From a virus (taxonomy: Duplodnaviria > Caudoviricetes), in IMG/VR virus record IMGVR_UViG_3300027627_000219, positions 1 through 28,686 of that record: a stretch of DNA of 28,686 nt. The stretch is one strand, 5' to 3'. The notes under the pieces are model-generated. The model did not search any database. It was not told the origin of the DNA and saw only the letters and a list, made by a program, of their open reading frames with translations. This document shows, piece by piece, positions 314 to 19,911 of this stretch (positions are counted from its first letter, which is position 1; the number at the start of each line of letters is the position of its first letter). Both the position numbers and the translations under genes were made by a program.

Positions 314-1525
314 ATGGCTTACGCAAATAGCAATTACAGCGATGTTCTTGCAACCACGATTGAGTCTCGGTCAGGCATCGTTGCGGATAACGTAACGAAA
401 AACAATGCCCTGCTGACTCGGCTGCAGGAGAAAGGCCGTTATAAGCCCGTCTCCGGTGGCTCGACAATCCTGCAAGAACTGTCGTTCCAAGGCAACTCGA
501 CTGCAATGTATTACTCTGGCGCAGAGGTGCTCGACATCTCTCCCGCCGATGTGATCAGCGCGGCTCAGTATCCGATCAAGCAGGCCGCGGTTGCGGTGAC
601 GATCAACGGTCTGGAAATGCTGCAGAACGCTGGCGAAGAGCAGATCATCGATCTGTTCGACGCACGGCTGGATGTCGCAGAAGCCAGCATCGAGAACCTG
701 ATCTCCACCGGCATCTATTCTGACGGCACGGGTTCGAACGGGAAGCAGATCACGGGTCTGCAGGCGATGGTTGTAGCTTCGCCTTCAACCGGGACGGTCG
801 GTGGCATTGACCGCTCAACGTGGAGCTTCTGGCGCAACCAGGTCTTCGACTTCTCGACAACCTTGAGCGCGTCAGCTTCAGCGTCCAACATCCAGACGGG
901 CTTTAATGCTCTGTATGCGAAGACAAGCCGCGGCTCTGACGTTGTTGACCTGATTCTGCTGGACAACAACTTCTGGGGATTCTTTATGTCCTCGATCCAG
1001 AATCTGCAGCGTTTCCCGACCTCGAGCAAGATGGCGGATCTGGGATTCGTTGCATCAAAGTACATGAACTGCGATGTGGTTCTGGACGGTGGTATCGGAG
1101 GCAACGTGCCTGCGAATACCGGATATTTTCTCAACTCGAAGTACATTTTCTTCAGGCCTATGGCGGCAAGGAATTTCGTACCGATCGGGGACGAGAGGAT
1201 GTCTACGAACCAAGACGCTAAACCAACTTTGCATTAACGCACAAAGATGGCGTCTCTAAATCTTCTCTTATTGACTTGGAAACCCAGAAGTGGGCAACAG
1301 GGCGCAAGCAGCGAAAGTGTGCAGCGTGAACGACTAAGTGAGAAGACCGGCAATGCCGGATGCGATAGTCTGAACTTGGGTATAACCAAAGAAGCCCAAG
1401 AGTGTAATCCGAAGCGGTTACACCACATCGAAAGATGGAGTAACAAATTGATCGTGCGTTTGATTGGGTGGGCAGGCAACATGACTGCCTCTGGCTTGCA
1501 GTTCCAAGGCATTCTTACTGAATAG
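314..1525 (+). CDS. major capsid protein, spliced: exon 1 314..1219 + exon 2 1451..1525 (326 aa)
   Basis: Capsid-like sequence (IESRSGIVADNVTKNNALL, GGSTILQEL, GIYSDGTG, GGIDRSTWSFWRNQ). The unspliced ORF stops at 1237; joining 1219 to 1451 restores in frame ...ERMSTNQDA|IVRLIGWAGNMTASGLQFQGILTE, a typical capsid C-terminus. Confidence 0.9.
1220..1450 (+). ncRNA. group I self-splicing intron (231 nt, no homing endonuclease)
   Basis: 5' exon ends in U and intron ends in G; P1 gacgcu (1214-1219) / ggcguc (1249-1254) with U.G at the splice site; P3 ucuucuc (1261-1267) / gagaaga (1340-1346); P7 gacua (1332-1336) / uaguc (1366-1370); P8 ccggc-aau-gccgg; P9-region hairpins including cauc-GAAA-gaug. 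Confidence 0.92.
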
Positions 1526-2108: not shown

Positions 2109-3746
2109 ATGACATTTGTTCCTCTCAAAATCGTTGGCAAATGCGTGATGGATGACGACACGTTATTCAGCGCAATGGACTTCGCTATTGCCAAAGGTTT
2201 CCCAGAGATCAAGCGCATGGAGCCAGCGCGGGATGGCGTTGTTGCCATCATTGCGTCTGGGCCGAGTGTGGCGGGTCAAATAGATGTCATAAGAAAAATG
2301 CAGCAGGCAGGGACACCTCTTGTTGCGGTGAAAGACGCGCATGACTGGCTGATAGAAAACGACATCATCCCCGAGTTTGCTCTGGCGATAGATCCACAAG
2401 AGCATCGTTGGAACTGCTTCAAACGCAAGCACGAGGCTGTAAAGTATCTGATTGCCAGCCAATGCCACCAGGCGATGTTTGAGCACCTTGATGGCTACGA
2501 TGTCACGATCTGGCATCCGTACATCACCAAGGGACAGACGAGACCTCTGAACCGCATGGTGGTCGGAGGTGGAACGACTTCCGGCTTGAGGGCAATAAGT
2601 CTGTTCTACACGCAGGGCTGGCGGCACTTTGCGCTGTTTGGGTTTGACTCATGCAATGACGGTCCGAGCCTGCGGGTCAACGGCGATCGGATCAAGGCCG
2701 ATGACAAGCTGCACGAGGTCAGGATCGATCTGGAGGGTGAAACCTTCTACTGCAACGCAGCGATGGCATTGCAGGCAGAGCACTTCCAGACCTATTACGA
2801 TGCCATCCCAGACGCTCAATTTTACGGGTACGGGCATGGACTGATTCAGTCCATCATTGCCAAGCGGGAGAAGAATCTCGAACTGTTACAACAGCAGAAG
2901 AACGAGCCTCCAGATAACAGGGTTTCTTTCATCCATTTCGGGAATGCAACGTCTGCATCGTGGCGTTATCGGGCAAACATTCCCGCCGATGGCTGGGCAA
3001 CGCTCAATGATCTGACTGCCGGGACGCTGGTATTTGCAAAACCACAAGCCACCGAATTGATGGCAATGGCGGCAGCAAAGATGCAAGGCAAGCGGGTTAT
3101 TGTAGATTTCTGCGACGATCATTTTGATTGGACGCACTATGCCGAGGCTTTGCGGCTTGCGGATGTTGTGACTTGCCCGACAGAAGCCATGCAGCAAAGA
3201 ATTGCAGAGCTCGGCAAACAGGCAACGGTCATTCCAGATCCGTTCGAATATCCTGAGTGCGGTCCACACAGCCGCGGGAAAAATCTTCTGTGGTTTGGTC
3301 ATGCGGTCAACAAAGCCAGCCTGGACAGAATCCTGCCGGATCTGAACGACTACCCGCTGCGGGTGGTGAGCAACTTTGCAGGGGCAATCCCGTGGAGCCA
3401 TGAAACGATGCTTGATGAATTCATGGTTGCAGACATCGTTGTTGTGCCTGCGACCGACGAAAAGAAAAGTGCGAACCGAGTTATCGAGTCGATCAGGCAG
3501 GGCTGCTTCGTGGTGGCAGAGCCCCATCCGGCGATCAAAGACTTCCCCGGCATCTGGATCGGCGACATCAAAGAGGGCATCGAATGGGCGCTACAGAACC
3601 AGCACGAAGCAAACCGGCGCATTGGGAAGGCTCAAAGATACTTGAAGGCAAAATATACGCCGCGAATATGTCGCGCCATGTGGAAGACGATTACGAAACT
3701 GCCTACAACCTCGGATGCGGCAAAAAGAACTGGCACGGATGGATAA
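2109..3746 (+). CDS. fusion of MptE/Maf-like (DUF115) domain and GT-B glycosyltransferase domain
   Basis: N-half: AIIASGPSV, AHDWLIENDIIPEFALAIDP, GGTTSGLRAISLFYTQGWRHFALFGFDSC. C-half: IVDFCDDHF, ADVVTCPT, VIPDPFE, LLWFGH, KSANRVIESIRQGCFVVA. Confidence 0.8.
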   Translation: MTFVPLKIVGKCVMDDDTLFSAMDFAIAKGFPEIKRMEPARDGVVAIIASGPSVAGQIDVIRKMQQAGTPLVAVKDAHDWLIENDIIPEFALAIDPQEHRWNCFKRKHEAVKYLIASQCHQAMFEHLDGYDVTIWHPYITKGQTRPLNRMVVGGGTTSGLRAISLFYTQGWRHFALFGFDSCNDGPSLRVNGDRIKADDKLHEVRIDLEGETFYCNAAMALQAEHFQTYYDAIPDAQFYGYGHGLIQSIIAKREKNLELLQQQKNEPPDNRVSFIHFGNATSASWRYRANIPADGWATLNDLTAGTLVFAKPQATELMAMAAAKMQGKRVIVDFCDDHFDWTHYAEALRLADVVTCPTEAMQQRIAELGKQATVIPDPFEYPECGPHSRGKNLLWFGHAVNKASLDRILPDLNDYPLRVVSNFAGAIPWSHETMLDEFMVADIVVVPATDEKKSANRVIESIRQGCFVVAEPHPAIKDFPGIWIGDIKEGIEWALQNQHEANRRIGKAQRYLKAKYTPRICRAMWKTITKLPTTSDAAKRTGTDG

Positions 3747-4183
3747 ACGTCGATCAATGCGAAACGGCAGACCTCCGATGCGACATCCGCAAGCTGGAGA
3801 TTGCCAATGATTCAGCCGATGCGGTTGCTGCAATCCATGTTCTGGAACACTTCTACGATTGGGAAGCGTTCGATCTGCTCACGGAATGGAAACGCATCTT
3901 GAAACCTGACGGCAAAATGATCATCGAGGTGCCTTGCCTGGACAAGGTATTTGCCTACATTGCGGATCAAATATCAAAAAACGAAATCTTAGAAAAGTAC
4001 ATGACTGTGCATCCGATATTCGGCGATGGAAAATATAAAAACCCAGCCATGATGCACAAGACAGGTTATTTCGTGAACAGCCTGAACAATTTGTTGATCG
4101 ATGTTGGAATGCGCGAGGTCACCCTGTGCGAGCCGCGCTACCACTTTCCGCACCGCGACATGAGGTTTGAAGCAATCAAATGA
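3668..4183 (+). CDS. class I SAM-dependent methyltransferase (Methyltransf_11-like)
   Basis: NLGCG motif I, CDIRKL, IHVLEHF, EWKRILKPDGKMIIEVP. Start uncertain (ATG 3668, GTG 3680, or 3584). Confidence 0.85.
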   Translation: MSRHVEDDYETAYNLGCGKKNWHGWINVDQCETADLRCDIRKLEIANDSADAVAAIHVLEHFYDWEAFDLLTEWKRILKPDGKMIIEVPCLDKVFAYIADQISKNEILEKYMTVHPIFGDGKYKNPAMMHKTGYFVNSLNNLLIDVGMREVTLCEPRYHFPHRDMRFEAIK

Positions 4184-5016
4184 TCGGCGTGATGACAAAC
4201 GAGGACCGGCACAACCAGATGGCGAAAGCCATAGGTCTGTTCCCTATGCTGCAAAAGCGAGGCAAGTTCCTGCCTCGCCGAGCCTCGATTGCCTGCTACG
4301 GGCCGAGCCTTGCCGATACCTGGCAGAAGCTGCGCCGCCCCATCATCACCGTTTCTGGTGCGCACGATTACCTGGTGGAGCGCGGGATCGTGCCTGATTT
4401 CCATGTGGACTGCGATCCCAGACCGCACAAGCCAGAAATGCTCAGGAAGCCCCAGAAGGCGACGATTTACCTGATGGCTAGTGTCTGCCATCCCCGGTTC
4501 TGGGAAGCCCTGCAGGGGCGTTCTGTGCGGTTGTGGCACCTGATTAACGGGGACGACTTGGAAACGGTGGCATGGGTTGCCCAAAACCATCCGGTGGGCA
4601 TCAAAAGCATGATCGGCGGCGGTTCGTCGGTAGGAATGCGAGCGATGAACGTGGCGGCGGCGCTTGGATACCGGAAATTCGACATCCACGGGATGGATTG
4701 CTCGTTCACCGAAAACCGTCACGCTGGGGCGCATACCGGCGGCAAGCAAGTCGAAACTCTGGTGCAAGCGGGTGACAGGATTTTCAAGACAACCAAGCAA
4801 ATGCTGCAAGCGGCGATCGAGATGGAGCATTTCCTGCAACAGCAGGACGCGGAAGTACGGTTTTACGGTGATGGACTCATGCAAGCAACTTCTAAAATTC
4901 TGAGGCAAAGAGATGAAACAAGAAACTGCGGGATGGACGAACGAACTGTTCATGGCAGAAACCCAAGGGAAAAACGCAGTCTTTTTCCATCCGGTGCAAG
5001 TGCAGAACGATTTTAA
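4180..5016 (+). CDS. second MptE/Maf-like (DUF115) protein
   Basis: IACYGPSL, AHDYLVERGIVPDFHVDCDP, GGGSSVGMRAMNVAAALGYRKFDIHGMDCS; paralogous to the N-half of 2109..3746; ATGA overlap with the methyltransferase. Confidence 0.8.
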   Translation: MIGVMTNEDRHNQMAKAIGLFPMLQKRGKFLPRRASIACYGPSLADTWQKLRRPIITVSGAHDYLVERGIVPDFHVDCDPRPHKPEMLRKPQKATIYLMASVCHPRFWEALQGRSVRLWHLINGDDLETVAWVAQNHPVGIKSMIGGGSSVGMRAMNVAAALGYRKFDIHGMDCSFTENRHAGAHTGGKQVETLVQAGDRIFKTTKQMLQAAIEMEHFLQQQDAEVRFYGDGLMQATSKILRQRDETRNCGMDERTVHGRNPREKRSLFPSGASAERF

Positions 5017-19674: not shown

Positions 19675-19911
19675 CTAACGGTGGCCCTGCGCCGCATTTG
19701 AGTCCCCGAGTTGTGGACTTGAACCACAGACCTCCCGATTATTAGTCGGGCGCTCTGCCGCTGAGCTACCACGGGGGTTGGCAATCGCTTCAGCAATCGC
19801 TTGCTTTACCGCCTCCGAATAAACTGCCCTTGTTGTCGCCAGCCATTGGCTCCCGAGGTTTATCACGGCCCATTGATCGTCTTTCGGGCCAAGCAGTTTG
19901 ACTTCGATCAT
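19675..19911 (-). CDS. hypothetical protein reading through the tRNA-like element
   Basis: RBS ggag and ATGA overlap at 19908-19911; MIEVKLLGPKDDQWAVINLG... Confidence 0.45.
   Translation of the reverse strand: MIEVKLLGPKDDQWAVINLGSQWLATTRAVYSEAVKQAIAEAIANPRGSSAAERPTNNREVCGSSPQLGDSNAAQGHR
19704..19775 (-). tRNA. tRNA-Ile-like element, anticodon AAU, possibly degenerate
   Basis: CCCGTGG TA GCTC-AGCGGCA-GAGC G CCCGA-CTAATAA-TCGGG AGGTC TGTGG-TTCAAGT-CCACA ACTCGGG G; D, anticodon and T arms pair fully, acceptor stem has two mismatches, no encoded CCA. Confidence 0.75.

Follow-up and report, generated by a model that had tools for sequence, protein, structure and literature searches.

A group I intron in a phage major capsid gene and the conserved hydrophobic-histidine tail of its unspliced product, a candidate Lon-type degron

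The DNA analysed here (the window) is a stretch of 28,686 nucleotides, positions 1 to 28,686 of IMG/VR record IMGVR_UViG_3300027627_000219, a linear virus DNA of 28.7 kb and ~70% completeness whose sequence is detected in freshwater and lake sequencing runs. Its major capsid ORF as called (314-1237) encodes 307 amino acids with the C-terminus KPTLH. The initial annotation read this as an early end (NQDA-KPTLH), with the final 24 residues in frame 231 nt on, and the exon and insert coordinates that we obtained agree. The features of the locus are as follows.

314..1219, plus strand: major capsid protein exon 1, 302 codons, HK97-type fold (phrog_9953, tblastn, model against the PDB)
1212..1256, plus strand: P1, exon 1213-1219 with guide 1249-1255, U1219-G1249 at the 5′ splice site
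1220..1450, plus strand: group I intron, 231 nt, phase 0, no ORF (exon joining, relatives, covariation)
1220..1237, plus strand: in-frame read-through K-P-T-L-H-stop, His at 1232-1234 and TAA at 1235-1237; candidate Lon-type C-terminal degron
1237..1248, plus strand: P10 partner (1237-1242 and 1246-1248) for exon 2 bases 1451-1459, 3 + 6 pairs
1261..1346, plus strand: P3, 1261-1267 with 1340-1346; both sides vary in 7 of 7 pairs across 72 cores
1275..1326, plus strand: P4 (1275-1278/1298-1301), P5 (1283-1286/1291-1294), P6 (1303-1305/1324-1326) and P6a with a GAAA loop
1330..1371, plus strand: P7 (1330 and 1332-1336/1366-1371, C1331 bulged) and P8 (1347-1351/1355-1359)
1372..1450, plus strand: P9.0, P9 (1375-1381/1394-1400), P9.1 (1402-1423), P9.2 (1426-1437) and terminal G1450
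1451..1525, plus strand: major capsid protein exon 2, 24 codons and stop (frame joined to exon 1; predicted strands 302-315 and 322-325)

A PHROGs profile search matched the capsid ORF to the major head protein phrog_9953 (E 1.4e-96, profile positions 5-305 of 329), tblastn matched it to annotated capsid genes of BUCT555, Mx8, Mx9 and ppBjS10J-1 (50-58%), and a model of an intronless relative (L002; pLDDT 72) matched HK97-type phage capsids in the PDB (best E 7e-12). Residues 302-315 and 322-325, which exon 2 encodes, are strands in the best-predicted region of that model. A Pfam search gave no family for the capsid or for a 92-aa ORF at 1247-1525, a PDB search by sequence gave 0 matches, and a scan of 1-2300 gave 0 promoters and 0 terminators. 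Because exon 2 holds the last two predicted beta-strands, we infer that this allele must be spliced. Elsewhere in the window, a tRNA-Ile with anticodon AAT lies on the minus strand at 19702-19776; A34 isoleucine tRNAs are unusual in bacteria. After the capsid genes, a cluster at 2109-5016 contains two MptE-like domains and a methyltransferase, and ORFs 2109-3746 and 3584-4183 overlap by 163 nt.

Exon 1 ends in the NQDA codons with U1219, the intron ends in G1450 and exon 2 reads IVRLIGW...ILTE-stop; together the exons encode 326 amino acids, with the intron between codons 302 and 303. P1 has 7 pairs plus a terminal A-C, and a P1-extension hairpin lies within 1227-1246. The helices first named from the sequence (P1, P10, P3, P5, P7, P8 and P9) all pair, as do P4, P6, P6a, P9.0, P9.1 and P9.2. 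Following group I numbering, we take G1332-C1370 in P7 to be the predicted guanosine site. The window's intron has no P2, P5abc, P7.1 or P7.2, and with P7.1/P7.2 the mark of subgroup IA, to which most phage introns belong, between P7 and P3 is absent: the 28-nt spacer is P3′ and P8 only. Its architecture is presumably linked to IB. The window's sequence alone folds only moderately better than shuffles (z -2.06), which counts against the structure.

The structure was then examined in relatives. Scans with core patterns gave 21 loci, then at least 124 and at least 128 stretches, and 40 in bacterial and archaeal assemblies; among the matches listed, 72 of 83 short cores were aligned (MAFFT), 11 being omitted for long loops. 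In this alignment, 99.0% of cells pair; 18 of the 28 pairs show two-sided changes, among them 3 of 3 compensatory pairs in P8; the P4-P5-P6 domain is also paired, and P7 was fixed by the search pattern. None of 500 shuffles was as good, a control that related sequences inflate; the slid-partner controls (39-49%) and the named pairs stand. The 57 same-site introns, a set chosen by 5′ ends, pair in 98.4% of cells, with two-sided changes in 22 of 45 pairs, one of them in P10 and one in P7. Their third P10 pair is G-C in 5 and A-U in 52, and the exon-terminal U with its guide G is present in 57 of 57, letters that the search pattern fixed. A T-ending Ala codon is found at the site in 1 of the 72 intronless relatives.

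The initial annotation had suggested group I covariance models as a check. Rfam gave no group I match in the window (E ≤ 1) or in 1150-1520 (E ≤ 10), and RF00028 was not matched; in PMC6125680 RF00028 likewise failed to detect any of the archaeal IB4 and IA3 introns. A model built from our alignment matches three GenBank phages outside its training set at 96-121 bits: one with a split P22-type coat gene, one with a split reductase gene and one unannotated record. In MW202674.1 (L103, coat) and OR420741.1 (L104, ribonucleotide reductase), the gene is given as two CDSs around an unannotated family member. Helix pairing, covariation and relatives uphold the identification as a group I intron; the qualifier 'minimal' was rejected, because same-site relatives span 223-248 nt and IB4 introns in the GISSD alignment 203-392 nt (PMC6125680). 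The IB4 introns of that source are rRNA introns, about half with LAGLIDADG ORFs, and IB4 is known in bacteria (PMC3984707); the window's intron resembles them in size range and in being missed by RF00028, and differs in its host gene. Taken alone, a functional ORF-less group I intron in the capsid gene is almost certain.

Contiguous intronless homologues, which the first reading expected, are the rule. We compared the best 80 of 130 IMG/VR relatives: 72 are contiguous at the site, 7 stop short and 1 (L001) has the same insert, so that 72 of the 73 covering the site read on as a single 326-aa protein. Among the best 120 of 7,765 protein matches, 98 are contiguous by regex, 13 are contiguous with a variant start and 9 are unmatched. 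The same site is occupied at 143 matched loci (one probably the window's own record), 135 of them complete, with 57 distinct introns of 223-248 nt. The intron had been described as ORF-less, and none of the 57 contains a homing endonuclease ORF or any other ORF (longest internal ATG-ORF 64 aa), in a set retrieved with a pattern that is blind to ORFs within the P1 loop. A separate 92-aa peptide from ATG 1247 was considered and rejected: the open frame is not conserved among these introns. Within the record, part of whose ORFs were searched at ~70% completeness, no homing endonuclease was named among 22 ORFs (Pfam) or in 34 scans (PHROGs), and no second intron of the family was found; the record does contain a Ref-like nuclease and a resolvase-like gene. 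A second core occurs in 17 of 141 same-site loci. The P9 loop (window 1381-1394) keeps AUAAC...AA in same-site introns and is short in endonuclease-type members.

Some family members encode endonucleases. Among the matches listed, 122 intron clusters fall into 50 in capsid, 6 in ribonucleotide reductase, 5 in tape measure and 2 in portal genes, with 59 unlabelled. Capsid is therefore the commonest labelled host gene (50 of 63), a share biased upward by a search pattern derived from a capsid intron. Six loci (L082, L089, L121, L144, L169 and L381) each have three or more members within a few kb in a single gene region. In a quickly built tree of capsids, 37 with the intron and 93 without, the label changes 8 times, at least 5 of them forced by strong branches, and presence varies even between capsids 97-98% identical; the coming and going of an ORF-less intron is compatible with homing in trans, with recombination and with repeated loss.

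The host gene, which at first seemed unusual, is not: besides being the commonest labelled one here, capsid genes with introns have been published for Tuc2009, LittleE and crAss-like phages. LittleE has an 819-bp capsid intron with an endonuclease and BAKA a 265-bp tail intron without one, both with splicing by RT-PCR as described in PMC3706429. Both resemble the window in lying in a virion gene, with an exon-terminal U and a terminal G; they score 20.1 and 11.6 bits on the family model (members 96-121), have a long insert after P3 and belong to another subfamily. The major head intron of Tuc2009 (AF109874; cited in PMC3706429) shares the capsid host gene but bears an ORF; it does not match the family model, and its first ORF ends FPAWS, with no His or Ala tail. 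Group I introns in the MCP genes of crAss-like phages, reported in PMC7886860, likewise share the host gene and, unlike the window's, carry ORFs. The intron itself is ordinary in size and host gene, and the His-ended tail is the new part.

To follow the joined message, three of six listed RNA runs and one DNA run were examined as contigs without matched DNA, four runs with almost none of the search words being left aside. A contig joining 1219 to 1451, with one base of ambiguity, occurs in all three RNA runs, from three studies (depth 29, 12.5 and 6.5), and in 0 of 1 DNA run, where the insert and both borders are covered. One RNA run also has an inner piece of the intron (1260-1394), and the RNA contigs share SNPs with intron-plus DNA. 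The window's 90% protein cluster (64 members, 15 listed) includes contiguous 326-aa forms on contigs of up to 46.5 kb, and intronless alleles at 97-98% identity occur, so the RNA joins could derive from these. All 8 full-length intronless forms within 10 differences, among those listed, carry Val161 and Ala168; the joined contig of run X17 has no change at codons 161 and 168 and therefore favours splicing a little. A search of IMG/VR DNA for intronless alleles close to the window gave no near match: 21 loci have a T-ending Ala codon at the site, the best at 73% nucleotide identity, ungapped, although such alleles are present among the proteins. We regard splicing in vivo as supported, not proven.

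It is very improbable that the insert stays unspliced as a dead element, an assembly artefact or a region from which the C-terminus is made by the ORF at 1247-1525. The insert is covered in an independent DNA run and exists in 57 distinct same-site copies, the core as a whole is preserved by compensatory changes, only 4 of 56 same-site introns share with the window a single in-frame stop, and the length is not divisible by three in 29 of 56. These observations outweigh the frame that runs open from ATG 1247 into exon 2, the Rfam search without a match and RNA joins that are not decisive.

On the unspliced message, translation would meet a stop 15 nt into the intron, giving the 307-aa capsid without the exon 2 strands. 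Across 142 same-site loci, the 18-nt tail has 18 haplotypes, all reading K-[PQH]-T-[LIF]-H-stop, with its first four nucleotides fixed by the search pattern. Positions 5, 6, 9, 10, 12, 15 and 17 vary, and with them all four third positions and the stop (ACT/ACA/ACG, TTG/CTG/CTT, CAT/CAC and TAA/TGA). The terminal His is present at 142 of 142 loci; the residue at -2 is L or I at 135 and Phe at 7, and the residue at -3 is Thr at all 142, where the stated Lon consensus has L/I. The tail is kept in capsids that are as little as 45% identical across the final 100 residues of exon 1, and 121 of 20,000 shuffles of 1220-1260 give a hydrophobic-His end. Such conservation of KPTLH, which the initial annotation had treated as a by-product, looks like that of a protease tag, one that ends in the window in T-L-H and not in the hydrophobic-Ala-Ala of ssrA-like tags.

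A possible, though doubtful, alternative is that this is an ordinary group I intron whose T-L-H is a by-product of an early stop, of P10, P1-extension or P2 pairing, and of shared descent. Exon 2 starts Ile-Val-Lys/Arg, and once a single U is bulged its complement spells hydrophobic-His-stop. The L-H-stop codons overlap the P10 partner in 43 of 58 same-site intron/exon pairs (the short-loop introns). In all 43 of these, six positions (11, 14, 15 and 17-19) are paired with exon 2, and much of the tail motif can therefore arise from RNA pairing. The count of synonymous against replacement changes on the 18 nt is 6 against 7 (P 0.097), and its lack of significance also speaks for this reading. 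Pairing accounts poorly, however, for C13, which is invariant though unpaired in 13 of 43, for G12, which is mispaired in 34 of 43 short-loop introns, and for A7 and C8 of the Thr codon, which are invariant though paired in only 5 and 0 of 43. The tail also persists in 15 long-loop introns, the window's type, whose P10 uses other bases.

The wider family shows two kinds of ending. Host frames were assigned by homology for 160 of 189 distinct cores among the matches listed, 29 being dropped; one frame (L313) was assigned wrongly and counts against the degron idea. The resulting 74 tail clusters, among the matches listed, comprise 14 hydrophobic-His, 26 [AVT]-Ala and 34 with neither, against 4 hydrophobic-His and 30 [AVT]-Ala in 516 off-frame stops and 3 and 15 in 344 natural ORF ends; the background of hydrophobic-His endings is ~1%. 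The tails are thus enriched as well as conserved. Of 12 sites assigned by hand, 6 have His tails; these belong to two capsid families and to phases 0, 1 and 2, with the tail in the P1 loop, as in the window, or in the P2 loop. As read by eye, a VTLH module is held in frame at both phase-1 and phase-2 sites by a one-base change in loop length. At the site after FHVD, YVH and YIH alternate with YFLLAA, YLLAA and FFALTA, and relatives have ssrA-like tails such as AANSAFFALTA. P2 loops vary freely where the stop lies elsewhere, which argues against pairing as the source of the ending, whereas losses of His in some relatives (VTLN, HSLGS and RSLGN) fit a by-product. One His-stop, in L125, is off frame, and some Ala-type tails use conserved core sequence before P7, for which separate selection is unneeded.

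Four members (L106, L125, L195 and L211) have near-complete ssrA-like tails such as ANDEKFALVA. The F-A-L codons read L-H in the next frame, and L125 has such an off-frame L-H-stop, so the His and Ala types may be linked by frameshift. Reductase introns after N-P codons (L500, L512, L516, L518, L455 and L525) have an immediate stop and no tail.

The degron idea was formed before the literature look-up and before either of two hold-out sets. In the first, from bacterial and archaeal assemblies, 24 of 33 full cores had a frame from PHROG, giving 17 Ala-type, 1 His-type and 6 other endings; a second His tail, PVLH, lies at a new site in L386, which lacks a PHROG match. Both His cases are on contigs binned with one Burkholderiales assembly, a weak hint at the host. 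In the second, new IMG/VR introns among the matches listed, 54 of 62 introns formed 43 clusters, 16 of them Ala-type (P 8e-10). His endings were not enriched there (1 of 43 clusters, P 0.13), in a set with few members from the two His-tail capsid families, a result on the side of the by-product reading. Sites share ancestry, so these P values overstate independence.

A second intron family in phrog_9953 capsids, with a different core and an extra helix after P7, comprises the following members.

L093:435-713; L101, L111, L173, L242, L274, L282, L321, L342, L347 and L360: second intron family

Hydrophobic-His endings occur in 9 of its 13 sequences, corresponding to 8 of 12 clusters at four sites, or 7 of 11 without the cluster that prompted the search; they read VYLH, INLH, RNLH, SNLH, SLIH, SLVH and VTVH. 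The same ending in a different intron family at four other sites, where the pairing partners differ, is hard to attribute to P10 pairing and shared descent.

We propose that the intron folds from P1 to P10, that exogenous guanosine cuts after U1219 and that the exons are then joined after G1450, presumably by standard two-step chemistry, with the joined exons restoring the 326-aa capsid. Ribosomes on the unspliced message would terminate after 15 nt of intron, and the 307-aa capsid that they release would end in T-L-H, an end that selection has probably kept as a Lon-type C-terminal His degron through which the host would clear the defective subunit. The His tail would then be the counterpart of the ssrA-like Ala-Ala tails in other family members. 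We consider this whole account, a spliced capsid intron with T-L-H selected as a Lon-type degron, probable, if with clear reservations; degradation, the protease and any benefit to assembly are what we infer.

The Lon degron is a terminal His, described in PMC11986505 on SulA, Y2853, Y2287 and Y0596 with the stated consensus x-L/I-L/I/V-H; validated ends include RVTLH (Y2287, KD 3.1 µM) and KFTVH, Thr is at -3 in two of the four, and His-to-Asp abolishes degradation by Lon. In most proteomes listed in that source, variants of the degron are present on 2-4% of ORFs. The last three residues of the window's tail are those of Y2287, and both have the terminal His after a hydrophobic residue; the Lon degrons are on native host proteins whereas the window's would be added by an intron, and the upstream residues, which also matter, differ. 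Selection on the tail as protein for another protease or purpose, such as HslUV, FtsH or exclusion of the truncated subunit from the shell, seems to us quite improbable. It would also explain the protein-level pattern, and Thr at -3 is off the Lon consensus, but a hydrophobic residue followed by a terminal His is the Lon signature, in alpha- and gammaproteobacteria according to PMC11986505, and the alternation with ssrA-like tails points to degradation.

The proposed Lon-type tag has partial parallels. Like the ssrA tag of tmRNA (AANDENYALAA; PMC8138137), the intron tail would be a C-terminal mark for proteolysis on an unfinished protein, although one encoded in cis. In T4 td and nrdB, unspliced RNA is translated only as far as an in-frame stop codon close to the 5′ splice site, as described in PMC8565351; there the stop is immediate and, unlike in the window, no tail is added, and of the two only nrdB scores on the family model, weakly (14.7 bits). 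The introns of LittleE (L373) and BAKA (L374) add VATAAA and DLAAAAA in frame, which are of the Ala type, unlike the window's. We lean slightly towards the general view that virion-gene introns add a protease tag to the unspliced product, of the ClpXP-type Ala-Ala or the Lon-type hydrophobic-His kind, possibly by host group. In PMC open-access and bioRxiv full text, we found no intron-encoded degron of either type.

What keeps introns in phage genes that are both essential and highly expressed is a puzzle, and the distribution of phage introns is called mysterious in PMC12350094. Because the family evades Rfam, databases contain truncated capsids that stem from it. Should the tail be a by-product, the window holds an ordinary capsid intron. 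A truncated capsid lacking core strands could poison assembly; if the tail is a degron, it would remove this cost. It would then be a bacterial parallel, encoded in cis, to the removal of proteins made from unspliced RNA, and would make it easier to understand why the phage gene with the highest expression can tolerate introns. The natural tails, which number in the hundreds, would also sample Lon and Clp preferences in uncultured hosts.
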